IMG/VR virus record: IMGVR_UViG_3300030060_004280
Location: 32,001 to 96,000 of that record
Source of the DNA: a virus
Reading direction: 5' to 3' (one strand)
Length of the DNA: 64,000 nt
Part shown: positions 912 to 54,056 of the stretch, one piece after another
Position numbering within the stretch: position 1 is the stretch's first letter
Layout: each line of letters opens with the position of its first letter
Program-made: the position numbers and the translations under genes
The notes under the pieces: generated by a model
Told to the model about the DNA's origin: nothing
Seen by the model: only the letters and a program-made list of their open reading frames with translations
The model's database searches: none

Positions 912-1525
912 GTAAAGTAATGGCTATTGACATTGAAACTTCAAACTACTCTTATGAGATTGGTGGATGGGATAAGACCCATCTGTTCGACCCTGTATGC
1001 GTAGCAACATGGGATGGAGAGAATGCACATATCTTCTCAAAAGAAAGCGATGTTCATGTCCCTCATGCTAATGTTCATCCACTACACCCAAGAGTATTAG
1101 GTGAGCATTTACAGAAGCATGTTGAAGCCGGTGGTAAGATTATCGGTCATAACATACGCGGATTCGACTTACCCGTTCTCCGAGATGCACTTGACATGCA
1201 CTATGCAGGTGTGTTGATTAAGAACGCTGACAAGCATTTGATTGATACTTCATGGACTCTTCGCTCAAGCGCGGGTCAAAGAGTCCCACTTGATGATGTA
1301 TGCAAGCATACGCTCGGTAAAGGTAAAGAGATAATGCATTCCGAAGATGCACCCGTTGCATGGCGTGAAGGACAGTTTTCTAAGGTAATGAAATACTGCT
1401 TGCAAGATTGTCAATTAAACTATGACCTGTTTGAACACGGTCGAAAGAAAGGCGTTGTAAAAGCGCGAAACGAGGATTCCGGCATCATCACAGACATTGA
1501 GGTGCTTTGGAAATTGGAGGAATAA
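908..1525 (+). CDS. DnaQ/DEDD-like 3'-5' exonuclease (RNase H fold)
   Basis: Exo I 'AIDIET', Exo II 'GHNIRGFDLPVL', Exo III 'YCLQD'. Confidence 0.85.
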   Translation: MSKVMAIDIETSNYSYEIGGWDKTHLFDPVCVATWDGENAHIFSKESDVHVPHANVHPLHPRVLGEHLQKHVEAGGKIIGHNIRGFDLPVLRDALDMHYAGVLIKNADKHLIDTSWTLRSSAGQRVPLDDVCKHTLGKGKEIMHSEDAPVAWREGQFSKVMKYCLQDCQLNYDLFEHGRKKGVVKARNEDSGIITDIEVLWKLEE

Positions 1526-1527
1526 AT

Positions 1528-3030
1528 ATGAGCGAAGAAAGAAAAAACGGACGCGAAGCCCAAATTAGCAATATACGAGCCGCCGTGAATATAGCGGAAA
1601 CCGTGAGGTCAACACTTGGCCCCGCAGGTATGGATAAGATGCTTGTCGATGAACAAGGACATACTATCGTTACTAACGATGGTGTGACAATCTTACGAGA
1701 ATTAGACACAGCCCATCCGGGTGCGAAGATGATGGTTGGTATCAGTCAAACGCAAGAGCAGGTCTGTAAAGATGGAACGACAAGTGTTGTTGTTCTTGGC
1801 GGACAGATGCTTGCGCTAAGCGAAGGTTTGTTACTAAGAGGTATTCATCCACAGACAATTGTTCGTGCTTACAACAACGCAAGTAATATCGCAATGAAAG
1901 CAGTTGAAGGACAAGCCAATAGCGGAGATGAAATCGCTATTGCTAAAACAGCACTACGAGGTAAAGCCGCAGAAAGTCATTTGGAAGATGCGGCTTCATT
2001 ATGTATTGAAGTTGCAGAAGCAGTTGAAGGTGATATGGACCGAGTTCGTATCATCACACAAGCGGGAGGTTCTATCAAAGATTCTTATTGGGATTCGGGA
2101 TTGATATTGAGTAAAGATTTTGCAATCCCAACAGAAAAGAAGTTTGAGGATGCGCGCATTCTATTGATTGATGGTGGGCTTGAAGGGTTTGATTTCAGCG
2201 AAGTTCAAATGCAAGTAACCGACCCTACTCAAATGCAACAAATACAACAGCAAGAGATGGCTATGCTCGGACATGCCGCGCAAGAGATTAGTGAGATATG
2301 TGATATACTCTTTGTTCGTGATGGAGTGCATGAAGCAGTTGTAAAGTATCTTGCCGCGAAAGACATAGGTGTTGTTTCTCGACTTCAACAATCGGACATG
2401 GACGCTCTAACCCGAATTACAGGTTTGAACTGTTATCATCGCTTTACAGACGCTCTTGAAGATGATTTGAAAGTGAAAGGTTCTGCGATAGGTAATCAGC
2501 GTATTGGTGACCTTGACTATGTTAGTGTGATAGTGCCTAACTCAACAGTTGTTACGATGGTTGTTCGTGGTGCTACTCGACAAACACTTGACGAGTATGA
2601 AAGAGCCTTCGATGATGCGCTCGGTGTAGTGTGTCTATACTTACAAGATACAGGAGATGGTGTTCTTGCAGGTGGTGGCGCGGCTTTGTCTAAAGCGTCT
2701 GTTGCTGTTCGTCAACATGCTCAAAAAGAGAAAAACATGAGTGCAAGAGAGCGTATGTGTTTAGAGGCATACGCAGACTCTCTTGAGATTATTCCTGCGG
2801 CTATCGCTAACAATGCAGGAATGGACCCGCTTGATGTTGTCATGGAATTACGGTCTTGTCCTTCTAATCACGGTTTATTCGTCAATGATGAGGGCGTTGG
2901 TTCTGTTTGTAATACATTCAAAGAAGGTGTTGTTGAGCCGACACAATTAGTTAGACAAATTATTAAGAGCGCAACCGAGGTAGCAACAGCGATTCTTCGT
3001 ATTGATGATATAGTAGCGCGTAAGGGATAA
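1528..3030 (+). CDS. ths: virus-encoded group II chaperonin (thermosome-like subunit)
   Basis: 'STLGPAGMDKMLVD', 'TNDGVTIL', 'DGTTS', 'AGGGA', 'GVVEP', 'ATEVATAILRIDD'. ATG at 1528 follows GGAGG. Confidence 0.95.
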   Translation: MSEERKNGREAQISNIRAAVNIAETVRSTLGPAGMDKMLVDEQGHTIVTNDGVTILRELDTAHPGAKMMVGISQTQEQVCKDGTTSVVVLGGQMLALSEGLLLRGIHPQTIVRAYNNASNIAMKAVEGQANSGDEIAIAKTALRGKAAESHLEDAASLCIEVAEAVEGDMDRVRIITQAGGSIKDSYWDSGLILSKDFAIPTEKKFEDARILLIDGGLEGFDFSEVQMQVTDPTQMQQIQQQEMAMLGHAAQEISEICDILFVRDGVHEAVVKYLAAKDIGVVSRLQQSDMDALTRITGLNCYHRFTDALEDDLKVKGSAIGNQRIGDLDYVSVIVPNSTVVTMVVRGATRQTLDEYERAFDDALGVVCLYLQDTGDGVLAGGGAALSKASVAVRQHAQKEKNMSARERMCLEAYADSLEIIPAAIANNAGMDPLDVVMELRSCPSNHGLFVNDEGVGSVCNTFKEGVVEPTQLVRQIIKSATEVATAILRIDDIVARKG

Positions 3031-3351: not shown

Positions 3352-3516
3352 TCAGTAGTAATTATCAATCATCTTCTTCAATGAAGATTTATTCTGCTTA
3401 TCTAACAAAGCATAGCAAGGACATTTCGGTGCAGTTTTAGAACACTCCATCTTATCTTTTAACATACAGACGCAAGGAGTTTTTTTAGTTGCACCGCAAC
3501 AGCATTTATCTTTCAT
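3352..3516 (-). CDS. Cys-rich metallothionein-like miniprotein (54 aa, not in ORF track)
   Basis: MKDKCCCGATKKTPCVCMLKDKMECSKTAPKCPCYALLDKQNKSSLKKMIDNYY, 8 Cys. ATGA overlap with the upstream stop. Confidence 0.65.
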   Translation of the reverse strand: MKDKCCCGATKKTPCVCMLKDKMECSKTAPKCPCYALLDKQNKSSLKKMIDNYY

Positions 3517-3710
3517 TTCTTCTTGCCACCCTTTTTCTTCTTGCCGAACTTACCGCGACAGTATTGAACAGCCCAACCGTTTGCATATGCTGATGGATAG
3601 ACTTTGAACTTGCGTTTAGCCGCCGCTTTACCTGCGGGGCATAACTTCTTTTCTATCGAATCCCATGCTTGATTTAGACAAGAGCAATGTTCACAATTAC
3701 ATTCATTCAT
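3513..3710 (-). CDS. small basic protein with AWxxIxK-like leader
   Basis: 'QAWDSIEK' then 'AAAKRKFKVYPSAYANGWAVQYC', a basic module I recall from marine phage proteins. Overlap-coupled on both sides. Confidence 0.75.
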   Translation of the reverse strand: MNECNCEHCSCLNQAWDSIEKKLCPAGKAAAKRKFKVYPSAYANGWAVQYCRGKFGKKKKGGKKK

Positions 3711-5256
3711 AGATACTCACCATTTTTACTATTGTAGGTTTTCCACCAACACCTTGTTTTCTGCTACGCTTGCGTTTAGTAGCCGCGCGTTTCTGTCCTT
3801 CGGACATAGAACCCGATGTTTTTGGAGTCTTATTTGATACCTTCACGCTTGGTCTGCACTTCGGATAACCCTTGCTTGATTTTTTTGCTTTACTACGCCC
3901 GCAAGGAGGGTGTTTGCCGTCTTTATTTTTACGCGAAACATCAACCCACTTCTCTTTGAACCATCGGTTGAGATTCTTCTTGAGTGTGCCGCGCTCTTTG
4001 AAATGTCTTGCGCGGTTAGCATGCATGTCTTCGGGAACAATCGTGCCTCTTGCTGTGTGGCTCATGTCCTTGCCACCTTTACCGGCTACTCCGCGCTTGC
4101 GTCGTTCTTGAGTTAATTCAGTTCGATACTTTCTGCGTTCCGGTGTGGACTCATACTTGGTATCGTATTCCTTTTTATGCTTCTTGGCTTCGGGACTCTC
4201 GGCATGTTTCAACAAGCGCATGGCTATATCCATTGGTTCACCTGTGCGTATATCGGGGTGTCGCATGTCCTGCATTGTCTTTGGAGGGTTACCTTGCGCA
4301 TCAACCAATTGTGTTACTTGTTGCGGCCTCATCGCATCTATCTTTATGTGTGGTTCAAAGTCGGGGTCGGGAGCCATTGGGAATAAACCCATAAAGCCAC
4401 TACCGCCGGGAGGTTTCTTTTTATCCTGCTGATATGTTCGCGTTGGTGTAACTTCACCAACTTTCACCCTGTCGAATTGTTGTCTTTTGTAATGCGGGCT
4501 ACCCATGTCATCTCCCACTTGCAACATATCGGGATGATTCGCTACACAATCTTCTGTTGAGCATCCTACCGCGCCTTCATCGGTGTATATTCTAAGACCT
4601 TCACCGCAATGTGAACACGGACCGCCACTATCTTCTAAATCTCTATCACCTTGAATTGGATTTCCATGCATGTCATAAGATGTGACAGCACTTCTTAGTG
4701 GATGGTTTTCATTTGTCATAGCGCTACCGAATGAATCTCCCAACTGTTTCTGTTTCTGTGCATACTTTTTAGCGGCGCGTTTCTTTTCCATGTAATCATG
4801 CAATCTCTTTTTTTCATCTTTTTCATCCCTGTCGTCGGGGTGAAAGATAGGCGCTTTCTGTATCATGCCGAGCATTTCCATTTCTTCAATTGTTGATTCA
4901 GCGCGTCGAAACCCCATGTTCTGTTGCCTTTCCTCTTCGTTCTCATTAACAACTTGCTGAATGTCTTGGTCGGGTTGAGGTATGGATAGTGTTTGTTGAC
5001 CCGGCTTCATCATTGCCGCGCGTTCAGCCTCATACTTTTCTTGCATCTTTCTGCGTCGTTCTCTTTCTTTTTCATCTGCTTCAACGCGTCGAAGATAGTC
5101 GCTAACTTCTGTTAGACCTGCGTTTTCCCCTGCAAGAGTTGCTTGCGGCGAATCTTGAATTAAAACTTGTTGACCGGGTTGCGCGGCGGCAATTGCCTTT
5201 GCTCTTTTGGATTTTAGCATATCAAAAGCCGAATCAAATACGGTGCTTTTTTTCAT
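3703..5256 (-). CDS. multi-module putative virion cargo polyprotein
   Basis: ATG at 5256 after GGAGG. Modules are separated by 'SAFDMLKS', 'GMIQKA', 'GEPMDIAMRLLKH' and 'TLKK'. Contains a CSHC..CSTEDC ribbon and a 'RWFKEKWVD..PCGR..GYPKCRP' basic domain. Confidence 0.8.
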   Translation of the reverse strand: MKKSTVFDSAFDMLKSKRAKAIAAAQPGQQVLIQDSPQATLAGENAGLTEVSDYLRRVEADEKERERRRKMQEKYEAERAAMMKPGQQTLSIPQPDQDIQQVVNENEEERQQNMGFRRAESTIEEMEMLGMIQKAPIFHPDDRDEKDEKKRLHDYMEKKRAAKKYAQKQKQLGDSFGSAMTNENHPLRSAVTSYDMHGNPIQGDRDLEDSGGPCSHCGEGLRIYTDEGAVGCSTEDCVANHPDMLQVGDDMGSPHYKRQQFDRVKVGEVTPTRTYQQDKKKPPGGSGFMGLFPMAPDPDFEPHIKIDAMRPQQVTQLVDAQGNPPKTMQDMRHPDIRTGEPMDIAMRLLKHAESPEAKKHKKEYDTKYESTPERRKYRTELTQERRKRGVAGKGGKDMSHTARGTIVPEDMHANRARHFKERGTLKKNLNRWFKEKWVDVSRKNKDGKHPPCGRSKAKKSSKGYPKCRPSVKVSNKTPKTSGSMSEGQKRAATKRKRSRKQGVGGKPTIVKMVSIYE

Positions 5257-5386
5257 ATGCCTCCCTCTTCTTTTCGCAACTTTCGCAATGACCCCATTCT
5301 CCAAGTGTTGCCGATGAGTCCCAATAACATCGACCGCAGAATGGCATCCATCGCTTATTCCACCTTTCTATTTCATCTTCGCTCAC
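5234..5386 (-). CDS. small Zn-finger protein (50 aa, not in ORF track)
   Basis: GTG start after GGAG. MSEDEIERWNKRWMPFCGRCYWDSSATLGEWGHCESCEKKREAYEKKHRI has two CxxC pairs and fills the gap between neighbours. Confidence 0.65.
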   Translation of the reverse strand: MSEDEIERWNKRWMPFCGRCYWDSSATLGEWGHCESCEKKREAYEKKHRI

Positions 5387-6614
5387 ACTTGCACACTCCG
5401 CGCGGTCCCTTCATTTGACCGCACCCTGCGCATTGCCTCATGAATGTCTTTTCTTTCTGTTCATCCTTTAACAAACGGAAAGCCAAATCCATAGGTTCAC
5501 TTAATGTGAATTGACCGTATTCGGGAAAATCGTCTGCCTCTTCTTCTTCTTCTAATGGGTTTGAAAGTTTTGTTGGTCTAACAGGTGGCGTAAATCCCGA
5601 ATATTCTTCTTGGAAAGTGGCTTCTCCGCGACCGCGCGGACCCAACTCTCTTAGAGTTTTACCTGTTCTTGTGGATGGTTTATCTTTTCGACCACCTTCA
5701 ACACCACCGCTTGCGCCGAAAGGAATTGTATGACCCGATGGCTCAAACATGAGGTTGTTCGCACCCTCCATTCTCTCATCGTCCGCATCTTCAAAATCTG
5801 CGCGCCTTGCTCCTGTATCAGCATCTATACCGAGTCTTTCTAAAAACTCCCTTGTATTTTTCTGCTCTCGCTCTTCATCTGTTACGCCAAAATTAGTTTT
5901 TTTGCCATGCTTTTCGTCAAGTAATTCATTGTATTCTTCATGCATTTCGTCAGTATATGGGTCATCCACATATCCGTCATCGTCCATGATATTACGCCGA
6001 ACACCAACCATCGCTCGTCTTTGCTCATAGCGCTGTTTTCCTAACTTCTGCATTTCATCTTTCAGTTTTCCAATGTCGACTCCTTCAAAGTTTTTAGAAC
6101 GGAGTGAAGATGGATTCATGCCTAACTTTCGCGCTAACAATGTGATATTAGCATTAGATAAATTGGTATCACCTTTATTTTCACCAAGAGAATAATTTTT
6201 CACCCATCTATCAAAGTGTGAAGTATCAAAGGGTTTCTTAGGCATCTTCTTACGCGAAGACCCTCCTGTTTGTTTGTTAGCGTATCTTAGATTTTGATTG
6301 ACTCCGCTTTCTCTATTCGCTCTTGCTTGGTCTATCTTTTGTTTTACTTCTTCACTCGCGGTTCCTGCGTTGTAAGCATCCATTTCTTTCGCTCTTTGCT
6401 CTCTTCGCGCTTGTCGCTCACGATAGGCTTGTTCTCTTTCTGCTCTTGTTTTTTTCTGTTTAAGGACATTGAAAGCCTTTTTCATTGACTTGTCTTTTTT
6501 GTAATTGCGCTCACCCGGACCCATCTTAGGGTGCTTTCCAACAGCAATAACTAAGACGGAGTGATTGCCTTTTTGCTCCTTGTTAGGTTTCATTACATCT
6601 TCACCTTTAGACAT
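5373..6614 (-). CDS. charged low-complexity protein with two AFxxLK tags and C-terminal Cys cluster
   Basis: 'KKAFNVLKQ' and 'SEPMDLAFRLLKD'; ends CAGC..CKC. GGTGA precedes the ATG at 6614. Confidence 0.8.
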   Translation of the reverse strand: MSKGEDVMKPNKEQKGNHSVLVIAVGKHPKMGPGERNYKKDKSMKKAFNVLKQKKTRAEREQAYRERQARREQRAKEMDAYNAGTASEEVKQKIDQARANRESGVNQNLRYANKQTGGSSRKKMPKKPFDTSHFDRWVKNYSLGENKGDTNLSNANITLLARKLGMNPSSLRSKNFEGVDIGKLKDEMQKLGKQRYEQRRAMVGVRRNIMDDDGYVDDPYTDEMHEEYNELLDEKHGKKTNFGVTDEEREQKNTREFLERLGIDADTGARRADFEDADDERMEGANNLMFEPSGHTIPFGASGGVEGGRKDKPSTRTGKTLRELGPRGRGEATFQEEYSGFTPPVRPTKLSNPLEEEEEADDFPEYGQFTLSEPMDLAFRLLKDEQKEKTFMRQCAGCGQMKGPRGVCKCERR

Positions 6615-6813
6615 CCAAATCACCTATTTTGTGTTTCTTAAACTTACCTTTGTTTAGGCGCGACTCCTGCCAAAGATGACCGCATGGCGGACACTCCCAA
6701 ATCAGCACACGCGTATCTCGTTCATTAACATAGCGCCCTTCTATACGACGCGCGAGAACATTTCTTTTACACATAGCGCATTGTTGACTTAATCTATCTT
6801 TTAATTTTCCCAT
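6607..6813 (-). CDS. Zn-ribbon protein
   Basis: CAMC...WECPPCGHLW. Confidence 0.75.
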   Translation of the reverse strand: MGKLKDRLSQQCAMCKRNVLARRIEGRYVNERDTRVLIWECPPCGHLWQESRLNKGKFKKHKIGDLDV

Positions 6814-6826
6814 ATTATCACTTCTA

Positions 6827-7615
6827 TCATGCAATAAATACCACTTTCATATAGCAAGACCCTACATATGTTGAACTACCGGAGGTTGGATTTGTAGTCG
6901 CTGTCGTAACAACGGGTTGTCCTTTCGCCGCGCCTGTTATCGTGAACTGCATTATCACTTCTGCTTGAGAGGATATGGCAGTTGTGTCAAACTCAATAAA
7001 CCCTGTTTGACTTCGCATTGGGTTTGCGCTCACATTAAAAGCCCCTCCCCCATTTAGGGGTATGGATGACGCATTTGCAACAACAGATGCATTAGCGGTA
7101 GCCGAAGGGTGGCTACCATTGTAAGAACCGTTTTGGTTGTAACCACTTATGATGTATCTAAGCATAACAATTTCTTGAAAATTATTAGTTGAAACATATA
7201 TGGTTCCGGGTTCCATTGTAATGCTGTTTAGATGAGTGAATCCTGTATTTGCTTGAGTTGTGGGTGGCGTTAATGATTGTAAAACAGTTGCTACATAATC
7301 AGCAACAACAATTTCGGTTTGTCCCGCCGTATTGATATTAGTGCCTCCGGCATTTGTTGCTTGAGCGTGACTATTAATCCCTGTGTTTGGGTCTAACTTT
7401 ATTGTATCTCTTACAAACACACTCGCCATAGTTTGATTGTTAGTAAAGGGTGGCGATAATGATTGATTCATTTCTGTTAGACTTACTACACCTAAATCAA
7501 AAGGCGCGCTACCTGTCGGGAAAACCCCCGGCGGTGGCGGTGGTGCGCCACCACCTGCGCGCTTTTTCTTATCCTTCATAGAAGTGCCTTTTTTCAACGC
7601 CCACATTGGATTCAT
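6827..7615 (-). CDS. hypothetical virion-associated beta-rich protein
   Basis: Directly after the tail fibre gene. T/N/S-rich body behind a basic and poly-Pro N-terminus ('MNPMWALKKG'). Confidence 0.6.
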   Translation of the reverse strand: MNPMWALKKGTSMKDKKKRAGGGAPPPPPGVFPTGSAPFDLGVVSLTEMNQSLSPPFTNNQTMASVFVRDTIKLDPNTGINSHAQATNAGGTNINTAGQTEIVVADYVATVLQSLTPPTTQANTGFTHLNSITMEPGTIYVSTNNFQEIVMLRYIISGYNQNGSYNGSHPSATANASVVANASSIPLNGGGAFNVSANPMRSQTGFIEFDTTAISSQAEVIMQFTITGAAKGQPVVTTATTNPTSGSSTYVGSCYMKVVFIA

Positions 7616-9691: not shown

Positions 9692-10039
9692 TTAATCCAA
9701 CTCCAATATGAATGAGAAACGCACTTCATTCTGTGCGCTCTTATTGAATCCATTTATATCTGCGCGATAAACAGGCACAAACTCACCCGTCGATGGGTCT
9801 TTGTATTGCAAATATATTTCTTTAATAGGTGAAGAATAAACATGCGAAGTGTTGAAACTGCCTTCAACCAATACGCTGTTATCATCAATAATAGTAACGG
9901 TAGGTGACACCCGCGCTAAGGTTCGTGCGCCTCCATCATCGGCTGATGCTACCGTTCCATCACTACCTATGTGTAATTCATTCACAAGCCCTGCAAGAGT
10001 TTCAACAAGTCTTCTCTTGATGCTGTTTAGTATCGGCAT
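9692..10039 (-). CDS. small tail/baseplate protein (fibre attachment type)
   Basis: 'LHIGSDGT..IKEIYL..FNKSAQNEVRF' pattern resembles tail-fibre attachment domains; lies between hub and fibre. Confidence 0.55.
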   Translation of the reverse strand: MPILNSIKRRLVETLAGLVNELHIGSDGTVASADDGGARTLARVSPTVTIIDDNSVLVEGSFNTSHVYSSPIKEIYLQYKDPSTGEFVPVYRADINGFNKSAQNEVRFSFILELD

Positions 10040-10626
10040 TATGCTACCCTCCGCGCTACAAAGTCATCTCCATCATAAATTAATCTATTATCGTCATAAT
10101 CAACAGGCACTACATGTTCTAAGTGTTCCGGTAAGATTCTCTTGCGGGATATTTGAGGGCGAGTGTGCCATTTCACCTTATCTCGCCCTTGTGCAAACTC
10201 TTTATCTTCTGTTATTTTACCTGCCGGTCGAGTCTTGATGCCTATTATCGCTTTTCTATCTCTTCTTTCATCATCTGTCACTCCACCCCAAGTGTCTTTG
10301 AACCATTCACCCGCTAAAAGAGGATTACCTTGAGTGGACCATTCGCCATGTTCTTCTGCCAAGTCAGCCCATTGTTTATTCGACAATTTGTTTCTTCCGA
10401 AACTCCATATAGCGGGGTCTGTTGAACCTGTGTATCTATCAAGTATATTTTTATCTTGCAGGGAAGAAGGTGCGCGAGGCTCTATGCCCTCCATTAATGT
10501 CTGTTGAACTGCACTCATTGGAATTGTTCTGTATGCTTGAAATTGGTTGTCATCTTGACTGAATGGCCTTACCCTCATAGCATCGTCACCCTTGAGAAAT
10601 ACCCAAGCGATTTCTATTGGTGACAT
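10039..10626 (-). CDS. AWxxLK-tagged protein, possible ADP-ribosyltransferase-fold domain
   Basis: Leader 'MSPIEIAWVFLKG'. 'QAYRTIPMSAVQQTLMEGIEPR' and C-terminal 'RILPEHL' resemble Tpt1/ART-like signatures. Confidence 0.4.
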   Translation of the reverse strand: MSPIEIAWVFLKGDDAMRVRPFSQDDNQFQAYRTIPMSAVQQTLMEGIEPRAPSSLQDKNILDRYTGSTDPAIWSFGRNKLSNKQWADLAEEHGEWSTQGNPLLAGEWFKDTWGGVTDDERRDRKAIIGIKTRPAGKITEDKEFAQGRDKVKWHTRPQISRKRILPEHLEHVVPVDYDDNRLIYDGDDFVARRVA

Positions 10627-33365: not shown

Positions 33366-33719
33366 TCACTCCTGTTCTTGCAACTCTTTCAACTTATCTA
33401 TACTCAAACCGAGAGGATTTGGGTCAGTCTGCGGAACAGGAGGTGCGCTACCATCAACAAACTTTGTGTTTGGGTTAAGTTCTTGTATGCGCTCTTTTGA
33501 ATCAAATATGTTCGCTATCTCCGGTTTTTGCATTTTATCGCGCGCATGGTTGTTTTTTGCTTCTGTAATGAATTTGATTGCATCTTCACTACTCATTTCG
33601 GGGAATGATTCTTTCATTGACGCTAACGCTTCTTGCATATTCTTTGACTCTCTCGCTATCAAATCTATGGTGCTAAATCCACCTTTGATAACAGACCAAG
33701 AAGCGTTAAGAGGGGACAT
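33366..33719 (-). CDS. tagged hypothetical protein
   Basis: Leader 'MSPLNASWSVIKG'; tightly packed in the operon. Confidence 0.7.
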   Translation of the reverse strand: MSPLNASWSVIKGGFSTIDLIARESKNMQEALASMKESFPEMSSEDAIKFITEAKNNHARDKMQKPEIANIFDSKERIQELNPNTKFVDGSAPPVPQTDPNPLGLSIDKLKELQEQE

Positions 33720-33721
33720 AC

Positions 33722-34291
33722 TCAACATCCCATCTTTTCACATGTTGAACCATGAGGCTCGCACTTAGGGCAACACTTTGCTTTTTCCTTAATGATAGAC
33801 CACGCGGCGTTAGTTGCCATAGGGTAACCTGTTGCGACAGGAACAGGTTGCTGTTGTTGCGGTTTCTTCTTCTGTTGCATTTGTTGAGATGCCGCTTGAG
33901 TTGGGTGTAATGCTTCGGGGTTTTGCCCTTGATGAACAAATGATGGAGTGTCGAAAACAGACTCTCCTGTTCCGTGTGTGCCGAATGACTGTTCTTGACC
34001 GACACCTTGCATTTGCTGTCCTTCGACACCATGACCGCCGCTTTGACCGCCGTAGGTAATATTACCGCTTCTCATAGCGCCCGGTTGCATTCTTTCACCT
34101 CGTCGGTCCAATCTTTGTCCCATAGTCATTTTGTTTCGGTTATACAAGTTCTCATCACCCATCTCGGCATGCGCTAACGGTTCATACCCGCCTTGATGAT
34201 GGACAGCGCTACCTTCACCCGAACCCTGTAAGTTTGGTTTTACATATTCTTTCTTCAATTTATTCCATGCTATGTTTATTATATTATTCAT
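33722..34291 (-). CDS. doubly tagged Gln/Gly-rich protein with C-terminal Cys cluster
   Basis: 'INIAWNKLKK' and 'PMATNAAWSIIKE', followed by CCPKC..C..C. Confidence 0.75.
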   Translation of the reverse strand: MNNIINIAWNKLKKEYVKPNLQGSGEGSAVHHQGGYEPLAHAEMGDENLYNRNKMTMGQRLDRRGERMQPGAMRSGNITYGGQSGGHGVEGQQMQGVGQEQSFGTHGTGESVFDTPSFVHQGQNPEALHPTQAASQQMQQKKKPQQQQPVPVATGYPMATNAAWSIIKEKAKCCPKCEPHGSTCEKMGC

Positions 34292-34295
34292 TTTA

Positions 34296-36770
34296 TCACA
34301 ATCCTAAAAATGCATCATGTGAAATAACACGGACATGCTTTGGCATAATTGTCATTTCGCTCTTGATGACACCCTTATCTTCGGGGATTGGTAGCGGTGC
34401 TTCGCTGATGATATAATCATCAACTACGATGATTACTTCTTCTCGATTGCTACCTGCTCCTGCTTTGGTAAGGGTGAGTGTAATTGGTTCTGTGTGTCCG
34501 TGACTACGGTTGGTTCTGTATTCATGCCATAGTAGCGGGTCGGAAACAATGATTGTCATTTTCATTTCATACTCAACTTGCTTTTCAATTGTCAAGTTAG
34601 GATTGCGCGAACCGCCAAATGGAACTTGCTCAAGCGATTGTCCGAGAGAGTTTCTTGATTCCTTAAACGCGGAGCCACGAACTGTTAGAATATTCTCTAT
34701 GTTGTTGTTTCCTGTAAGTGAGAAGTTTGTGATTTGCGCGAGGTTAATACCAAAAGCGTTAATCTGTCCGTTGTAAAAGAAGTATGGCTTTTCTGTGTTT
34801 GGCGCTATACCCGCTTTCTTTCTTTCCGCTTTACCGTTAGCGATGTTCTCAAACATTCGGTGAGTGCTGTATCTGTCACCCTTGTTTTCGGGTGTGTCAT
34901 CTTCAAGACGGCCTGTATCTGTGTAACAATATAGCGCATCAAAGTTGACGGTCAACTTAACTTCTGCATCTGCATCTGCGGCGATTGCAAAGTCCTTCAC
35001 TTTGCACCCTCTCCAAATACGAGTTAGTTGTTTGTTATCGGATGCTGAACCCGGTGGCGCTTCGCTACCTGTCGAACTTGCATTGTAAGAGCCGGTGTTG
35101 CGCGTTCGCATACTTGTTTCAAGAGTAAAGGATGGAACGGTAGCGCCTTGAAAAATCAAGCGCGACATTCGATTTTGTATTTCCCCATAACTACCCGTAG
35201 CGGAGTTAAAGTGTGGAGAACCATTCGCGTTATCATCTGCAAAAGGTATGACCTTTAGAGTAAAGTTACCAAGTGCATGGTCGAAGGTGAACGGCTCTTC
35301 AACATAGATTCGCTTACCAACTGCATCATGCAAAATAACACGGCGTATTTCATTACGCTCGGCATTTTCCATATCAACACCAAGACCATCATTACCCCAC
35401 TTCTTACCACTTGCGGCTACTGCTCGGTCTGTTGGAAACTCAACTGCTGTTCCATCAACGACGAGTAAGTATTCTCCTGCAAATGGCGCATTTGACATAG
35501 TTCCTGTATATTCATAATAACTGTCACCTGCGGCTATATCTTTGTTAGTGTTACCTGTTGGCGCGATTCTAAAGTGAGTTCCTGCGCTTGCTCCTACATC
35601 GTCAACGACCTGCGCGCCAAGAGAGTAGTATAACCAACGGGCGCTGTTCATCATCATTTCAATAGAGCCGCCTTCATTCTTCATGCTTTGAGGCTCTTGA
35701 ATAACTACATCACGACCAAGACCGATAACATGGCTTCGGCGGATTTCGACTTTGGTTTCCGGTAGCGCTACCGTAGCGGCAAGTCCAACAAATTGGTCTG
35801 TGAGAACGGACTCATCGGATAGTTTAGCACTTGCGTTGTAAGTCATTCCTGTGTCCATAGTTGGTGTTCCAATTGTATCAATGAGTATTTCATCGTTAGC
35901 ACTTGACGCACCATTCTCTTTCATCTTTGGAGTGACTGTGATAACATTAGCGCTATTGGCTACAATAGTGTATGTATTACCTGTTGTAGCGTAATCGTCA
36001 GCGTCATAATTTGCGCTTGAACCTCTAACGCGAAGTGTTGAACCAACAAGCATTCCCGCAGGGTATTTGAGATTACCACTTGCGTCGAACATTCCGCTTG
36101 TTGCTTGTGTAAATGTAATATCTGTGCAATCGGCGTTTGAAGCGTTGGTTGTTTTAGTAAATAGTAATCCACCTGCTGTAAGAGATGTTACGGCAACTGT
36201 TCCTCCTGTTCCTGTTCCAAGAGTTAACACATCGCCTACATTATATCCTGTTCCTGCTACGGATGGACTTGCAGTAATTGTTGCAATTACACCATTAGCA
36301 ATTGCTGTTACTACAACTTTGAATGTGCCACCACCGCTACCACCTGTGTCTAAAGTGATAACATCATCGACAGCATGCCCTGTTCCGCTATTTGTGACAG
36401 TATATGTTAAAACACCACCTGTGCCTGTTACTGTGTCTATTGTGATTGCTAAACCTACTCCTGCTCCTGTTGAAGCGCTCGCGCCGGATTGTGAAACATT
36501 TTCTGCCGCAACATAACTTGCACCTGCGTCGTCAACAGCAGAAGTGGTAATCACACCATTATCAACTGATGCTATTGCAATTGTTGCACCTGTTCCGCTA
36601 CCGCCGGTTGTAGCAACCGTAGCGACAGAATATCCCGAACCTCCGGTAGCCGGAGCAGTATTTACAGCCGCTATCGCACCTGCTCCAAATGCTCCATTCT
36701 TTAGCGCTACTCCGCATTCATGCCCGAATGTTACTTCTGCTAAGTCACCCTTATACACCGTCGATACCAT
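34296..36770 (-). CDS. major tail (tube) protein with large decorative insertions
   Basis: Position before the chaperones and tape measure. Tube-like 'VPSFTLE..RIWRGCKVKDFAI..PYFFYNG..ITNFSLTGNNN'. Gly/Thr-rich insert near the N-terminus. Confidence 0.75.
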   Translation of the reverse strand: MVSTVYKGDLAEVTFGHECGVALKNGAFGAGAIAAVNTAPATGGSGYSVATVATTGGSGTGATIAIASVDNGVITTSAVDDAGASYVAAENVSQSGASASTGAGVGLAITIDTVTGTGGVLTYTVTNSGTGHAVDDVITLDTGGSGGGTFKVVVTAIANGVIATITASPSVAGTGYNVGDVLTLGTGTGGTVAVTSLTAGGLLFTKTTNASNADCTDITFTQATSGMFDASGNLKYPAGMLVGSTLRVRGSSANYDADDYATTGNTYTIVANSANVITVTPKMKENGASSANDEILIDTIGTPTMDTGMTYNASAKLSDESVLTDQFVGLAATVALPETKVEIRRSHVIGLGRDVVIQEPQSMKNEGGSIEMMMNSARWLYYSLGAQVVDDVGASAGTHFRIAPTGNTNKDIAAGDSYYEYTGTMSNAPFAGEYLLVVDGTAVEFPTDRAVAASGKKWGNDGLGVDMENAERNEIRRVILHDAVGKRIYVEEPFTFDHALGNFTLKVIPFADDNANGSPHFNSATGSYGEIQNRMSRLIFQGATVPSFTLETSMRTRNTGSYNASSTGSEAPPGSASDNKQLTRIWRGCKVKDFAIAADADAEVKLTVNFDALYCYTDTGRLEDDTPENKGDRYSTHRMFENIANGKAERKKAGIAPNTEKPYFFYNGQINAFGINLAQITNFSLTGNNNIENILTVRGSAFKESRNSLGQSLEQVPFGGSRNPNLTIEKQVEYEMKMTIIVSDPLLWHEYRTNRSHGHTEPITLTLTKAGAGSNREEVIIVVDDYIISEAPLPIPEDKGVIKSEMTIMPKHVRVISHDAFLGL

Positions 36771-40840: not shown

Positions 40841-41992
40841 TCATTGTAGGTCGCGAATTGAACCGCTTGCACCAAAGAAACTACCCCATAGTTCACCCAT
40901 AGTTCGGTAAAGTCCTTCCTGTCCGAGCCTGTTAATCGCGAATGGGTCACCTGTTTCAATACCACTTTCAAAGTATTGTGTTGGAATTGCGGTTTGGAAC
41001 CACAAGTAGTCAGTATCAAGATAATAGATACGGGATAGAGAACTTGCACCTTCGTCCGGCATATCCTTTGTTGGGATAATTGGAACTCCGTTGTAAGTTG
41101 CTACAATAAATCCTGCTTCGATACCCGGAACACCCTTCACACCGGAATAGGTAGGGGTGATTCTCTTAGAATCCATGAATCTTTGTTGAGATTGCAACAG
41201 TTGTTGAGCGCGCATAAGCGTATCATATCCTGTTAGCATAACCTTTGGATTACCACCGCGAGTCCAAATCTGTTGGAATAGACCATCAAGTTGGTTTAGC
41301 GATAGGTTTCTCTTATTGTTTGCATCTGTTGATACATCAACTTCTGCGCTATGGAAATCTTTTGTTCCGTCGCGAGTAATAGAATACATATCGTGCTTAG
41401 TTAGCGAAGTAGTAATGTGGTTTGTTCCTGTTGTCATCTTGTCCGGGTCGGATGTGAGTCTGTCAAGTGACTCAAAGTTGTTACCGGCAGTTGTGTCAAC
41501 ATCAACAAGAAGCATCTTGTTAATCATTTCAGCGTGATGCTTACCCATTTCTTCTTTTAGAACCTGTCTAACATCGCCAAGTCCATCATCCTTATCGGAT
41601 AGGAACATGCTTACTTCGGATAGGTCGAAGGTGTGCGCGATAGTCTTAGGCTTAGCCGCTACATGCAGGAACTCCGGTCTTTTGGTTTCCGGTAGTGTTC
41701 CATTTTCTGCGATACCACCGCTAACGCCGGATTCAGCGCGCTCGGTGAGGATTCTCCATCCACTTCGCTCCCACGGTTTCTTAGGAAGAATTGAAAACGC
41801 GTTAAACTCTTGGTTTAACTGCGACCATACTTTACGGCCATAAACCGCTTGATATGTTCCTGCGGTTGTTGACATAAGTGGGCTGTCTGCCTTCAAAATG
41901 TCGCCGCTTGAGTAGGTGTAGCCTGTTTGAGCCGCACCACCGTAGTAGTATCTTTCCATGTCTTGAACTGTTCTTACATAATTTCGTGCCAT
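40841..41992 (-). CDS. major capsid protein (HK97 fold)
   Basis: 383 aa right after the protease. 'VWSQLNQE..LPKKPW..GWR', 'TYNGVPIIP', 'IYYLDTDYL', 'GSIRDL'. ATG at 41992. Confidence 0.9.
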   Translation of the reverse strand: MARNYVRTVQDMERYYYGGAAQTGYTYSSGDILKADSPLMSTTAGTYQAVYGRKVWSQLNQEFNAFSILPKKPWERSGWRILTERAESGVSGGIAENGTLPETKRPEFLHVAAKPKTIAHTFDLSEVSMFLSDKDDGLGDVRQVLKEEMGKHHAEMINKMLLVDVDTTAGNNFESLDRLTSDPDKMTTGTNHITTSLTKHDMYSITRDGTKDFHSAEVDVSTDANNKRNLSLNQLDGLFQQIWTRGGNPKVMLTGYDTLMRAQQLLQSQQRFMDSKRITPTYSGVKGVPGIEAGFIVATYNGVPIIPTKDMPDEGASSLSRIYYLDTDYLWFQTAIPTQYFESGIETGDPFAINRLGQEGLYRTMGELWGSFFGASGSIRDLQ

Positions 41993-41997
41993 ATTAT

Positions 41998-43410
41998 TCA
42001 CTCTCCCCTCAATGCTTTGTCGGCCATGCGGTGAACTTCGTCCCACGACATGTTTGCCATTTCCGTAGTATCGGGAATTGTAATTGATGTGGTTGAAGCA
42101 CTCTTAGTAAGAGTTTCTCCACCACCGGATGAAACGCGACTGATTCTTTCATCAAGCGCTACAACTGCTTTTTGCAATTCAAGAAGAGGTTTGCGGGAGT
42201 CAAAGTTTGCTCGCGCTTTCTCATTCTTTGCGATTCGCTGTTCTTTAGAAAGTCTGTCAGCGAAGTAGTCACCGAGAGAACCTTTGAATTGTTGCTCAAC
42301 GGATGCCGCCTTATAGACTTCGTAAGCCGCTTCAATGTCACTTTGAGAAACATTTTCGGGCATAATAAAATCGCTCTTAATTACATTCTTGTTACCGGAT
42401 GGTGCGCTACCAAAGTTTTGCTTTGGTCGCTTGCCGGAATCATCTTCGCCCGCACCTTCAAGAGAACCTTGTCCTCTATGGTCGTAGCCGGATTGTCCCG
42501 GTCCATATCCTTTATTCACGCTGTCGAAGTGTGCGCGAGCATCAGCAATGTCGTGTCCTTGACTCTTTGCTGTTTGCTCAAGCCAATTCAAATAGTCCAT
42601 TGTTATCATATCATCTGCTTTTGCTGTCATGTCATCACCATACATCATATCGTCGTCCTCATCATCCTCTTCATCCTCTTCTTCATCGTCAAGGTCAAGT
42701 TTAGGTTTGGACTCTTTCTTTTTGTCACCGAATGGGCCGGGGTCGCCGTCACCATCCGGGTCAAGTTGTGGAGGCATGCCTTTGTCAGCATCCTCGTCTT
42801 TCTTTTTCTTATCATCTTCTTCATCATCGAGTTTTTTCGATAGTCGTTCTAATACATTCTGTAATTCTGTCATAGGGTCGCTCATGGTATCACCTGTGTC
42901 CTCCTTGAGAATCCTAAATTGTGCTTCGGGGTTGATACCCTTCTCGCAAATAGTTACCTCATGGAGTTCCATACGACGGATTTCACGGTAATCACCGCGA
43001 GTAGCGTCGCTCTTGTTAACACGCTCAAAGGCTTGACCGCCTATTGAGAATGACCGAAGGTTGCCCTTGCGGATTTCGGATGCAACTTCGCGGGCTTTTT
43101 CAATATCGCCGCGTAGTTTAATCACAACAAACATGCCGGTATCATCCACTTCGGATTTCCATACACGGCCATTGCTATCTGTGTAAGAAGGTATTACCGT
43201 TCCTACTTGAATATTGGAGTGCGCAAGTTGAACATTGCGGAATCCATCTGCTTTCATAAATCCACTAAACGCATCTTTCAAAGCGCTACGGGTAATTAGG
43301 TCGCCTTGCTTGTCGACCATTTCAACCGATGCATAACCTGCAACTACCAAATCGTCACCGAACCCCTTGAGAACAAGAGGGTTAGATTGAGAAGGTGCAA
43401 GAATTGCCAT
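41998..43410 (-). CDS. prohead protease (XkdF/S78-like) fused to acidic scaffold
   Basis: 'VVAGYASVEMVDKQGDLI', 'LAHSN', 'LRSFSIGG', 'LHEVTIC..GINPEA'; D/E-rich and coiled C-terminal half. Confidence 0.9.
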   Translation of the reverse strand: MAILAPSQSNPLVLKGFGDDLVVAGYASVEMVDKQGDLITRSALKDAFSGFMKADGFRNVQLAHSNIQVGTVIPSYTDSNGRVWKSEVDDTGMFVVIKLRGDIEKAREVASEIRKGNLRSFSIGGQAFERVNKSDATRGDYREIRRMELHEVTICEKGINPEAQFRILKEDTGDTMSDPMTELQNVLERLSKKLDDEEDDKKKKDEDADKGMPPQLDPDGDGDPGPFGDKKKESKPKLDLDDEEEDEEDDEDDDMMYGDDMTAKADDMITMDYLNWLEQTAKSQGHDIADARAHFDSVNKGYGPGQSGYDHRGQGSLEGAGEDDSGKRPKQNFGSAPSGNKNVIKSDFIMPENVSQSDIEAAYEVYKAASVEQQFKGSLGDYFADRLSKEQRIAKNEKARANFDSRKPLLELQKAVVALDERISRVSSGGGETLTKSASTTSITIPDTTEMANMSWDEVHRMADKALRGE

Positions 43411-50766: not shown

Positions 50767-52620
50767 TTAAAAACCGCTTTCTTGGTTCTTACTTGTAGGG
50801 TCTTTAGCGGCTTCAACAGCGTCAAGAGCCTGTTCAGTTACCGTTTTTTCCGAGCCGCGCTGATTCTTTTTTGAAGTGGGTGCGCCACTCAAGTGCGTTT
50901 CCGAACTAAGAGGCGCGGGTCCATTATCGCGCTGTCCTGTTCCTTCACCAAGTCCCATAGCGCCGCCCTTTTCCATCATCATGATAGCCTGTCCGCCTCC
51001 CGATGCTCCGCCTTGAGGCGGTAGCCCCCCGCCGCCTTGAGGAATCATTGCACCGCCCGGAGGTGTCCCTTGTTGTGGTGGCGGCATAGGCATACCGCCG
51101 CCGGGAGTTGGAGGTGGCATTCCACCCGGAGGCGGCGCTCCACCCGGAGGCGGCGCTCCACCTGCACCACCGGCAGGAGGTTGTTGAGGTTGAGGGTCGG
51201 GCTTCTTGTAAGTGAATCGTATATCTCGCCCTGCATCTTCGGTTAATTCCGGTTGGAAACCAAGCGCTTGCATACGCTGTGCAATATTGACTTCTTGCTC
51301 ATCGCGTCGTAGTCTTGTAACATCATCCTCTTCTTCGTTAGGGTAAAGAGTCAATTCCCATTCGTCGACACCCATTTCTTTCAATAGGCGCGGGAATAGA
51401 TTTTTTGCATATATTTTCTGTCCGTATTCAACAGCACGATTAGTGACAAGAATCTGCATACCCTCATTGTTGAGTCCGCCGGACTTACCTGCGTCCATCA
51501 TAAAGATACTCGATACACCATAAAATGCCGCTATACGCATTCTTACTTCATCACGAACCTGCGCGTATTGCATTTCATCAAGGCTATCCATGAAGCGCAC
51601 AAACTCAACTTTACCTCGACCGGATGCTGATTCTATACCAACTTTCGGAATATAATGAGGGTCGCGTTCCATCTTCTCTTCTGCGCCTTTCCAAAACGAT
51701 GCAGTTGATTGAATGTTATCAGTAGTGATTGCGAGAACACCACGCGGTATTCTTCGCTTTTGATATGCAAGGTAAATGTAATTATCCATAGCGGTAAGAG
51801 TTTGGGCTTGCCTCCACATTGTAGCGACAGGACTACGCCCATACAATTTAGAAGGATTAAACTTACTTGTGTGAATAATTTCACCATCAATGTAATACTG
51901 CGTTTTACCACTACCTGCGGTGTTGATGTAGTGAACATCTTGTAATGGTAGCGAGCAAACTTCACACTTTTTATGGTCGCCATTGTGAGGGTATGTTCTG
52001 TCACGATGAACAGGGCATATGAGATACCTGCCACCTCTTGCTCCGCGCTTATCAGCAACTATCCTCATGAAAGTTGGGTCACCACGCATAACTTCTTTAA
52101 TTCGGAAAAACTCTATACCGCCGCTATCGGGGTCAATGAAATACTCTTTGATAAGAATAAGGAATGCATCATCAACAATGTCTAAATCCCATTCTATTTC
52201 ACGCATAACATCCATAAAAGATTGGTCCATGCTGTTGCGTTGGTCTAACAACCAACGAGGATAAAGAACTTGGTCTGCGCTTGGGCTTTTGAACTCTTCA
52301 TTACCGCATATTCGACATTCTGCAACGGTATCATGATTGTATTCTTCGCCACAATTGGTGCATTTTTTGTGAAACTTTTTTTGCCAATAATGGCCGCGCC
52401 TAAATATTTCTTGACATAGTGTGTTAATTGTAGTTCTCAAAACAACTGATTCTTGAACAGTTGCATATAGCGCGGGAATGCTTACACCTTGAACAAGAAC
52501 AGGCTCTTGAATACCACTTTTCCAAAGCGGCATAATTGGTTCGGGTGTAGTTCTGCGACGGAATGGTTTTGACAAAGACGACAAGAATCTGCCGACTACA
52601 CCTTTCTTTTCTTCAACCAT
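50767..52620 (-). CDS. portal protein with two Zn-finger insertions and Pro/Gly-rich tail
   Basis: 'DLDIVDDAFL', 'LYGRSPV', 'IPRGVL', 'RIAAFYGVS..M...GGLNNEG'; lies between TerL and protease. Confidence 0.9.
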   Translation of the reverse strand: MVEEKKGVVGRFLSSLSKPFRRRTTPEPIMPLWKSGIQEPVLVQGVSIPALYATVQESVVLRTTINTLCQEIFRRGHYWQKKFHKKCTNCGEEYNHDTVAECRICGNEEFKSPSADQVLYPRWLLDQRNSMDQSFMDVMREIEWDLDIVDDAFLILIKEYFIDPDSGGIEFFRIKEVMRGDPTFMRIVADKRGARGGRYLICPVHRDRTYPHNGDHKKCEVCSLPLQDVHYINTAGSGKTQYYIDGEIIHTSKFNPSKLYGRSPVATMWRQAQTLTAMDNYIYLAYQKRRIPRGVLAITTDNIQSTASFWKGAEEKMERDPHYIPKVGIESASGRGKVEFVRFMDSLDEMQYAQVRDEVRMRIAAFYGVSSIFMMDAGKSGGLNNEGMQILVTNRAVEYGQKIYAKNLFPRLLKEMGVDEWELTLYPNEEEDDVTRLRRDEQEVNIAQRMQALGFQPELTEDAGRDIRFTYKKPDPQPQQPPAGGAGGAPPPGGAPPPGGMPPPTPGGGMPMPPPQQGTPPGGAMIPQGGGGLPPQGGASGGGQAIMMMEKGGAMGLGEGTGQRDNGPAPLSSETHLSGAPTSKKNQRGSEKTVTEQALDAVEAAKDPTSKNQESGF

Positions 52621-54056
52621 TAAATCAGCCTCTCTATGCGGTGAATGTCGTCGACGAGCCGTATAACTTCATTGTCGCGCTGTCCCCATGCAAGAACTTC
52701 TGCCTCATCAACTTTCCACTCTCGGAGCAATTTATCACGCTCTTCGGGAACATCTTTCCAATTTTCCCACTTCACTATACGATATAATTCTTCTCTTCGT
52801 GATTTAACAAGGTTGCTTTTAGACCCTCTTAAATCGAGTAAATGCAATACTGCGTTGGCTTGATTCTTTTTCATTTGTAAATGAGGCGTTATACCTTTGA
52901 GTAATTTGCGCAAATCATCAGCACCATAAAACTGCAAACGATGTTGTGTGCGCTTACTATTCTTGTGTATTTTCAAATCAGTCTGTAACACTCCGCATCC
53001 AAGCGACTTATGCAATTGCTCACAATGCAACTTGCCCCTACCCCCTGTCGCTACAAACCCTGCTCTTGGTTCTCCGCGTTTTGTGATTGTGATATACCCG
53101 TCAGCATCGAGAAATCCTGCGGCATAAGCCCATATATCTTTGACAATTACAGTATCGTCTTGTATGATTCCATAGTTAGTGCCTATCTTTTCAATATCAT
53201 ATTCGACACCATGCATCTTCAACAAAGATGCCATTTTTCTAATAGTTAGATGTTTAGGTGAACCTATTGAATTGTATATTTCATTTGAAGATAGTGGACC
53301 TCTTTCTATAAGAATGTCTGCTGAACGCGTAAGCCATATTGCTTCTTGTTTCTTTATGTCGTCTATCGGATGCAATGTCTTTCTCCATTGGGATTTGGCA
53401 TCCTTTCTCATTTGTCTTGAATCAAGCCATAATTGCAATTGGTCTTGGTTAAAGTCACCTTCTATTTGAGATAATTTAGTAATTACATCGTTAGCCTTCT
53501 CCCACATAGCGCATGCTCTTCGCAAAGACATTTCCTTTGTCACGCCATGTTTTCTCAAAGCGTGTAAGTTTCTATCGGAAACTCCAAGAGCGCGTATAGA
53601 TGATAAGTGCTTATTAGCCCACGGTATAGATTTCAATGTTGATTCAACCTCTTCTTTTTTCGCAATTCGTATAGCGTCTATGGCAAGGTCTATGTCTTCT
53701 CGCATATCTTTTCTATCGCGTCGCGCCATTCGCAACTCCTTCACCATTGATTCTGCATCTTTTCCAAACATTGATTGAAACCAACCATTGTGAGGCATAG
53801 CGCTTTTGAGTTGTTGCGTAGGTTGAACTGATTGTTGTTGCGCTACCACTTCTTGTATTTTCTTTTTCTCTTTATCCTGTTCCATCGCATCGGGTTGAGA
53901 TGGGGTTGTTGGTGCGGATAATTCACCTTCTCCTTGTGACTGTGTTTTAGGAGCATCGCCCATATTTGGATTTGCTACTGTTCCTGTTGCTTTACGCAGA
54001 ATGGCATCTATTTCTTCATCCCTAAGAATAGAGCCGGTCCACATTAACAATTCCAC
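52620..54056 (-). CDS. fusion protein: helical N-terminus, winged-HTH-like segment, single LAGLIDADG domain
   Basis: 'WAYAAGFLDADGYITI', 'LHKSLGCG', 'LLKGITPHLQMKKNQA'. Confidence 0.85.
   Translation of the reverse strand: MELLMWTGSILRDEEIDAILRKATGTVANPNMGDAPKTQSQGEGELSAPTTPSQPDAMEQDKEKKKIQEVVAQQQSVQPTQQLKSAMPHNGWFQSMFGKDAESMVKELRMARRDRKDMREDIDLAIDAIRIAKKEEVESTLKSIPWANKHLSSIRALGVSDRNLHALRKHGVTKEMSLRRACAMWEKANDVITKLSQIEGDFNQDQLQLWLDSRQMRKDAKSQWRKTLHPIDDIKKQEAIWLTRSADILIERGPLSSNEIYNSIGSPKHLTIRKMASLLKMHGVEYDIEKIGTNYGIIQDDTVIVKDIWAYAAGFLDADGYITITKRGEPRAGFVATGGRGKLHCEQLHKSLGCGVLQTDLKIHKNSKRTQHRLQFYGADDLRKLLKGITPHLQMKKNQANAVLHLLDLRGSKSNLVKSRREELYRIVKWENWKDVPEERDKLLREWKVDEAEVLAWGQRDNEVIRLVDDIHRIERLI

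Follow-up and report, generated by a model that had tools for sequence, protein, structure and literature searches.

A conserved Lys-terminated peptide joins unrelated protein modules in the late genes of a magrovirus

We analysed a stretch of 64,000 nucleotides (positions 32,001 to 96,000 of the IMG/VR record IMGVR_UViG_3300030060_004280; hereafter, the window), in which several genes encode proteins carrying a short recurrent peptide that ends in Lys, referred to here as the tag. The window belongs to a magrovirus, a tailed virus of marine group II archaea (marine group II Euryarchaeota), since its thermosome gene and halovirus-type head genes agree with those of published magroviruses (PMC5434244). 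Its minus strand forms a single long late operon, the terminal genes of which are 5373-6614, 3703-5256, and 3513-3710. The analysis confirmed that one conserved 12-residue peptide ending in Lys strings unrelated protein modules together across the magrovirus lineage.

Tagged proteins of the late operon

An earlier description, made from the letters of this stretch without database searches (the sequence-only reading), had proposed that the proteins 3703-5256, 5373-6614, and 33722-34291 are chains of tagged segments that a protease would release as independent mini-proteins. All three proteins were present on the minus strand as claimed. The features of the first one, of 517 amino acids (aa), and of the open reading frame (ORF) that overlaps the end of its gene are as follows.

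3703-5256, minus: 517-aa tagged multi-module protein; ORF and start backed by homologues P0001-P0003, mosaic homology
5212-5256, minus: degenerate N-terminal tag MKKSTVFDSAFDMLK, residues 1-15; relatives start MNPNDVAFSVIK or MLPNDAAFSILK
Residues 16-123 of the same protein: Q/E-rich coil
4855-4887, minus: degenerate tag EEMEMLGMIQK, residues 124-134, joint behind the coil (comparison of P0007 with P0001)
4246-4854, minus: Cys-motif bead (CSHCGEG...GCSTEDC), residues 135-337, shared with relatives
4207-4245, minus: canonical helix tag TGEPMDIAMRLLK, residues 338-350; tag profile 13.5 bits
3976-4206, minus: module A, residues 351-427, 77 aa, net charge +8, ending RGTLKK; phrog_6437-like (PHROG, 3.9e-16)
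3724-3975, minus: module B, residues 428-511, 84 aa, net charge about +25, NLNRWFKEKWVD...PCGR...YPKCRP...GGKPTIVK; C-terminal half of DUF5872, phrog_23735
3706-3723, minus: 6-aa tail MVSIYE after GGKPTIVK, residues 512-517; relatives have MVAVK or MVRVI followed by a stop, or MVLVK followed by module A
3513-3710, minus: 65-aa ORF with a Cys-rich leader and the 'YPSAYANGWAVQ' (SAYAN) basic module; N-terminal half of DUF5872 (Pfam, PHROG)

The beads-on-a-string layout proposed for the 517-aa protein was borne out, with the coil, the Cys bead, the tag, and the basic modules A and B in succession. The predicted 'IQK|A' joint was recovered in P0007, where MLGMIQK directly precedes the bead that in P0001 comes after a canonical tag. 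A joint between modules A and B also exists, but it lies after the second Lys (TLKK|N) and not at 'TLK|K', where it had been placed.

The other two proteins have the following features.

5373-6614, minus: 413-aa protein with leader, helical domain, disordered acidic half, tag, and Cys tail; 16 colinear homologues, 39-80% identity
5466-5504, minus: C-terminal tag LSEPMDLAFRLLK of the 413-aa protein, conserved among homologues
5376-5465, minus: 30-aa Cys-rich tail of the 413-aa protein, CxxC...CxC, 4 Cys
33722-34291, minus: 189-aa protein with N-terminal tag, G/Q-rich body, C-terminal tag, and Cys tail
34253-34291, minus: N-terminal tag MNNIINIAWNKLK of the 189-aa protein
33788-33829, minus: C-terminal tag GYPMATNAAWSIIK of the 189-aa protein
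33725-33787, minus: 21-aa tail of the 189-aa protein, 5 Cys

Both proteins end, as had been described, in a tag followed by a short Cys-rich peptide (30 aa with 4 Cys and 21 aa with 5 Cys, respectively). The start of the 413-aa gene at 6614 was backed by homologues. In the AlphaFold2 (AF2) model of this protein, the N-terminal helical region showed predicted local distance difference test (pLDDT) values of 80-91 in most blocks and the C-terminal half values of 40-56 in most blocks, with short helices of up to about 70; the tag was modeled as an isolated low-confidence helix within the C-terminal half, outside the folded core. The residues P, M, L, A, F, R, L, and K of the tag were invariant in 15 homologues while the flanks varied; no other block of the variable C-terminal half is invariant in this family.

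The bodies of the 413-aa and 189-aa proteins did not behave as shuffled modules, since the homologues in each family were colinear; it is their C-terminal Cys tails that are mobile mini-modules behind an invariant tag. Two Cys mini-modules of the 413-aa tail were gained or lost among homologues, with P0160 and P0161 keeping 7 aa only, and the 189-type Cys peptide recurred, with another tag ahead of it, on a 413-like body in the closest relative (L001) and on an unrelated body in P0175. The 457-aa ORF of this closest relative (L001:6102-7472) joins a 413-type N-terminal region, through a canonical tag, to a Cys tail of the 189 type and, judging from its sequence, is a natural chimera of two window genes.

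Tag conservation and module exchange

A logo built from 194 non-redundant internal tags gave the consensus [T/A][G/S]EPMD[I/L]A[W/M/F][R/Q]LLK. The terminal K was present in 100% of these tags, and the information content dropped from 4.4 bits at K to 1.0 at the following position and about 0.3 beyond. At 12 aa, the conserved block exceeds most protease sites in length. The strict pattern P[MILV][DEN]x[AS][WFMY]xx[LIVM]K occurred 5 times in the window proteins (20,473 aa) compared to 0.01 times in shuffles, and a loose tag core occurred 16 times compared to 3.8; full-length matches to the tag profile were located only within real minus-strand genes. N-terminal tags were observed in four window proteins (10039-10626, 33366-33728, 33722-34291, and 3703-5256). 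Tags outside the three proteins described above, detected with the tag profile and pattern counts, are listed below.

10591-10626, minus: N-terminal tag MSPIEIAWVFLK of a 195-aa protein
33684-33728, minus: N-terminal tag (MLSMSPLNASWSVIK) of a 120-aa protein
60156-60194, minus: internal tag TGEPMDLAFDVIK of a 400-aa protein, with a very basic region behind it

In the loci fetched from relatives, 37 tags were N-terminal (1-3 aa after Met), 201 were internal, and about 18 had a stop codon 0-8 aa after K; one protein bore a tag at both its N- and C-terminus. Seven near-identical tags were found in a 1040-aa relative protein (P0046), and at least 12 in one ORF of genome G001 that crosses the contig end. 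Three complete relative genomes (about 105-109 kb) contained 16, 11, and 8 loose-pattern tags, 34 of the 35 on one strand, and the reversed-pattern control gave 0 matches in the same genomes. When searched as a DNA pattern, the strict tag was present in 83 stretches of viral contigs, mostly contigs of 30-110 kb, and had 0 matches in 596 Gb of prokaryote genomes (185,579 genomes); when 50,697 records of cultured phages were searched by tblastn with a tag of 20 aa, the matches were at chance level only.

Identical tag peptides were encoded by differing codons. Third-position entropy reached 1.2-2.0 bits (near saturation) compared to about 0 at positions 1-2 of fixed residues. Such free variation at third positions, next to fixed positions 1-2, places the selection at the level of the peptide. 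The charge was -1.6 on either side of internal tags, with no asymmetry (p = 0.89). Met directly followed the tag Lys in about 9% of the tags in the fetched loci, which suggests that many joints arose when a gene ending in a tag was fused to the start codon of the gene behind it.

A HMMER search with the 517-aa protein against 1.8 billion representatives returned 1561 homologues, and arrangements were judged on the best 150 of the 1561. No full-length colinear homologue was present among these 150, and three homologues matched residues 8-353 only. Within the same set, module A was frequently the exact C-terminus of proteins of 140-1350 aa, and module B frequently began at residues 2-13 or closed a protein. 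In the fetched loci, A and B also stood alone as ORFs of 100-110 aa, appeared in reversed order (L018, L029, L033, L034, L043, L053, and L064), lay in adjacent genes (L007, L037, L050, L052, L061, L062, and L065), or were embedded in a 747-aa ORF (L002). Module B was fused to a DUF6321 protein beside the terminase in L008 and L010-L013, and a SAYAN-bearing ORF was fused to A-containing ORFs in L007 and L037. The Cys bead moved together with its C-terminal tag and was followed by five different modules in q517, P0001, P0002, P0004, and L027. Module B was found at more than 589 viral loci with 70-93% identity, so that its conservation is about that of the capsid protein, which is 83-95% identical in the closest 80 relatives.

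The sequence-only reading had anticipated segments that stand alone or are reordered, with breakpoints at the tags. This applied to the 517-aa protein, a mosaic whose modules A and B occur alone, swapped, or split, but not to the colinear 413-aa and 189-aa bodies. Alignment placed the breakpoints of 517-aa-type chains directly after Lys: among the 150 representatives, 19% of the internal alignment ends fell 0-5 aa past a tag Lys compared to 2.3% of random positions, a figure that is only partly independent because the set was chosen by homology to the 517-aa protein.

The joints ahead of the modules were compared by counting every distinct sequence upstream of each module as one context. Module A had 52 such contexts: a helix tag in 25, a strand-type joint in 21, and something else in 6. 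K stood right before the module in 51 of the 52, and the third residue upstream of the joint (P3) was hydrophobic in all 52. K was likewise the residue right before module B (103/103 contexts), the SAYAN module (53/53), and the DUF6321 module (26/26). Short hydrophobic-x-Lys strands (SVLVLK, VLIVK, TIVK, and TLKK) can replace the helix tag, and L001 has VVRK exactly at the site of the helix tag of the window. The helix and strand separators have in common only hydrophobic-x-Lys, at a fixed position. In the window, one further joint of this kind was recorded.

54320-54457, minus: acidic, Cys-containing leader ending SPVQVALEVLK ahead of a basic DUF6321 module (Pfam DUF6321, 5.3e-15)

The small basic modules have leader variants of their own, CSPxExAxxVLK for DUF6321 (54044-54457) and xFDIAWDSLEK for SAYAN (3513-3710), and a CxC(H/C) motif is located just upstream of the leader in both of these window ORFs.

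Modules, head genes, and the scaffold helix

Module B matched Pfam DUF5872 (8.5e-8; 33.2 bits compared to a cut-off of 27.5; residues 402-498), and the 65-aa ORF matched positions 4-42 of the same profile below the cut-off. The AF2 model of module A featured an alpha-alpha-beta-beta-alpha topology with a core pLDDT of about 84, ending in a beta-beta-alpha unit with invariant D, S, H, N, and R; the tag ahead of it was a low-confidence helix outside the folded core. Feature matches of module A to HNH proteins in the ESM Atlas scored 0.87-0.88 only. Foldseek gave no match for this model, and VIA-align gave no significant match (best Z 3.6; HNH rows with Z 3.4 and 2.5 and a root-mean-square deviation above 8), so that an HNH or beta-beta-alpha-metal nuclease identity is an unconfirmed lead. 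In the ESM Atlas, modules A and B both appeared as stand-alone viral families of about 90-100 aa.

Pfam searches of eight long tagged proteins and seven ORFs of complete relatives returned DUF5872 only, plus sub-threshold GNAT, SAM lyase, and DnaJ zinc finger hits, and most of the larger beads were without a match to known families. A PDB sequence search gave no match for the 517-aa or the 195-aa protein, and the latter, which is N-tagged, had one homologue only (86% identity). HExxH motifs were present in beads of P0001, P0007, and P0046; none was found in any protein of the 64-kb window, even though tags occur there. In the giant tag-punctuated ORF of G001 (L247:1-3615 and L248:3570-4649), ParB-like GHHR motifs were seen by eye in the beads, together with one GNAT-like R-G-x-G motif. 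A second GNAT-like motif was observed in a neighbouring separate ORF (L247:5809-6999), with sub-threshold Pfam support for GNAT (E 0.05-0.07).

The head and tail genes of the late operon and the adjoining chaperonin gene are located as follows.

54454-55854, minus: terminase
50767-52620, minus: portal
41998-43410, minus: prohead protease (Peptidase_S78) fused to scaffold, candidate processing enzyme; Pfam 3.2e-9, PHROG head maturation protease
40841-41992 (also delimited as 40841-42046), minus: HK97-fold major capsid protein; phrog_24667, 6.8e-53
34296-36770, minus: tail tube protein
1507-3030, plus: group II chaperonin (thermosome), just beyond the tagged cassette

The operon also holds a 5633-aa giant protein, followed by fibre-like genes. 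Two sequence elements of the fusion protein are conserved: the leader of the protease (P-h-h-L-K|G, where h is hydrophobic) and the protease-scaffold junction (FRILK|E). In HK97, the type system for S78 proteases, maturation of the capsid protein takes place at F-N-K103|S104 (PMC5701804). In the magrovirus, the N-terminus of the capsid protein (GDILK|AD) was too conserved among the 80 fetched relatives to inform on cleavage. The conserved C-terminal helix of the scaffold (41998-42060) reads E[ML]A[ND][ML]SWD[DE]VHR[LM]A and has the core [DEN]-h-[AS]-W-x-x-h in common with the tag. This core had three matches in the window proteins compared to 0.26 expected, namely two N-terminal tags and the scaffold tail. 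It is possible that the tags mimic the scaffold helix as the natural ligand; the tag-like core of this helix suggests that tags dock at the site of scaffold-capsid binding.

Some neighbouring genes were also noted. A 75-aa zinc-ribbon protein (6607-6834; DUF7479-like, 4.9e-5) lies between the fibre-like genes and the tagged cassette, a position kept in relatives. Upstream of the terminase, a 558-aa protein (55859-57535) closes with A/K/P repeats in a run resembling histone H1 (AKPKKEAKPKKK...), behind which lie acidic EEPM(D/E)FDE repeats. Between the terminase and the portal, a 478-aa ORF (52620-54056) with an HNH endonuclease match (phrog_5046, 1.3e-10) occupies the slot of the homing endonuclease in published magroviruses.

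Proposed docking and cleavage, and alternative readings

We considered that the tagged proteins could be modular cargo, with a portable helix tag that docks to the head machinery and an S78 protease that cuts after the tag Lys to free the modules; we give this reading a probability of roughly 45%. The tag would first bring the protein to the head-assembly machinery, probably at the place where the C-terminal helix of the scaffold binds. The HK97-type S78 head protease of the virus would then cut after the tag Lys, freeing small basic modules (A, B, SAYAN, DUF6321, and Cys-rich knuckles) as well as larger effector-like beads, and the freed modules could remain with the DNA or be ejected with it. 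Cleavage is favoured because hydrophobic-x-Lys, in a fixed position, is all that the helix and strand separators share, because conservation stops sharply at Lys, and because the virus encodes a Peptidase_S78 whose HK97 counterpart cuts after Lys103. The tag is probably more than a cutting linker and also serves as an address or docking peptide, as suggested by the 37 tags at N-termini, the roughly 18 within 0-8 aa of stop codons, and the protein tagged at both ends.

Several points weigh against this reading. Both the cut and the packaging are something that we infer from sequence. A cut at the tags close to a stop codon, or in the double-tagged protein, would free nothing useful. The HK97 precedent is a single site, and the tagged genes are found at the end of the tail operon, away from the head genes. 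The Lys ahead of A and B could belong to the conserved N-termini of the modules themselves, and a hydrophobic-hydrophobic-Lys rule showed no clear enrichment per protein in the window generally. Finally, the HExxH beads of some relatives could process the chains instead.

A rather unlikely alternative is that the tag is an address or docking helix only, for a common partner such as the capsid interior, the scaffold, the portal, or another hub, and that the chains stay intact as multivalent polyvalent proteins. The free position of the tag relative to its cargo, the protein tagged at both ends, a conserved block exceeding most protease sites, and the likeness to the scaffold C-terminus, which suits a binding motif, would all agree with this. 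However, short hydrophobic-x-Lys strands take the place of the helix before module A, as VVRK does in L001, and the information drop after the invariant Lys, together with breakpoints just past it, suits a scissile bond better.

It is improbable, in our estimate, that the chains are cut at the tags by another enzyme, either a zincin-like metallopeptidase bead or a host protease, before packaging or after ejection. The HExxH motifs in P0001, P0007, and P0046 would fit such an enzyme, and processing by a metallopeptidase of this type has been proposed in the polyvalent-protein model (PMC5512222). Yet the window is tagged and has no HExxH in any protein, and the absence of the strict tag from 185,579 prokaryote genomes indicates that it is not a copy of a host motif.

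Recruitment of the virus-encoded group II chaperonin (1507-3030) by the tag, for the folding of unusual cargo, appears very improbable: the thermosome gene adjoins the cassette and T4 propeptides have been proposed as chaperonin recruiters (PMC10052503), but only 12 of 26 magroviruses encode the chaperonin (PMC5434244), and many tagged segments are predicted to be disordered. There is equally little to commend the tags as neutral linkers, recombination scars, or DNA-level exchange repeats without peptide function, for although modules are exchanged exactly at tags, the codon analysis led us to reject an origin as DNA repeats or recombination hotspots, no block other than the tag stays invariant in the variable half of the 413-aa family, and N-terminal tags lie 1-3 residues behind the start codon.

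Docking followed by cleavage after Lys can be extended to a plug-and-play cargo system, which we put forward tentatively and with the odds somewhat against it. Here, a helix that copies the capsid-binding end of the scaffold would load the adjoining module into the procapsid, the HK97-type protease would cut after Lys, and single genes would bring varying combinations of effectors and DNA-coating mini-proteins into cells of marine group II archaea.

Among known systems, the capsid targeting sequence of T4 (on IPI-III and Alt; removed by gp21) is similar in being an amphipathic peptide of about 10 residues on otherwise unrelated proteins, several of them small and basic, and in ending hydrophobic-x-charged (L/I-x-E in T4); the magrovirus tag too is placed at the N-terminus of unrelated proteins (37 cases). 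In contrast, the magrovirus tag ends in Lys and is accompanied by an S78 protease (3.2e-9), not a gp21-type enzyme cutting after Glu in L/I-x-E. It also recurs inside long ORFs (up to at least 12 times) and at C-termini, the host is archaeal, the virus is uncultured, and packaging and cutting are predicted for it. Phage polyvalent proteins (Iyer et al. 2017, PMC5512222) are likewise long proteins of late genes, assembled from a large number of unrelated domains that shuffle rapidly; it has been proposed that they accompany the DNA on delivery and undergo processing into units. They use in-built zincin peptidases and have no described conserved inter-domain peptide, whereas magrovirus joints are marked by a near-identical 12-aa tag, the window is without HExxH, and most beads match no family.

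Capsid maturation in HK97 involves a protease of the same family (gp4), and its F-N-K103|S cut resembles the hydrophobic-x-Lys joints; however, the known gp4 substrates are the capsid delta domain and the protease itself, with no set of tagged cargo. Encapsulin cargo-loading peptides are also short conserved peptides on diverse cargo, co-encoded with an HK97-fold shell and working from either terminus, but they are uncut, differ in sequence, and do not punctuate polyproteins, and the magrovirus shell packages DNA. Potyvirus and picornavirus polyproteins, with their repeated protease heptapeptide, share a short P-side-conserved motif at each joint of unrelated modules; these RNA viruses translate whole genomes, whereas the magrovirus, a double-stranded DNA virus, uses the design only in accessory late genes, with a highly variable module order. 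No description of tag-punctuated modular proteins was found in the magrovirus papers examined, and the original magrovirus paper (PMC5434244) mentions neither motifs nor repeats.

In the surface ocean, magroviruses rank among the most abundant viruses of archaea, and the majority of their genes are unexplained (PMC5434244). A single tag that can be recognised in sequence would place about a dozen proteins per genome in one functional class, which is probably virion cargo; it would supply exact module boundaries for hundreds of dark-matter proteins and predict that S78 head proteases follow a Lys-specific processing rule. If loading is confirmed, foreign proteins could also be packed into an HK97-fold capsid by means of this small, portable peptide; if the tags are also cut as proposed, magroviruses would offer the first case of a polyprotein strategy among archaeal tailed viruses.

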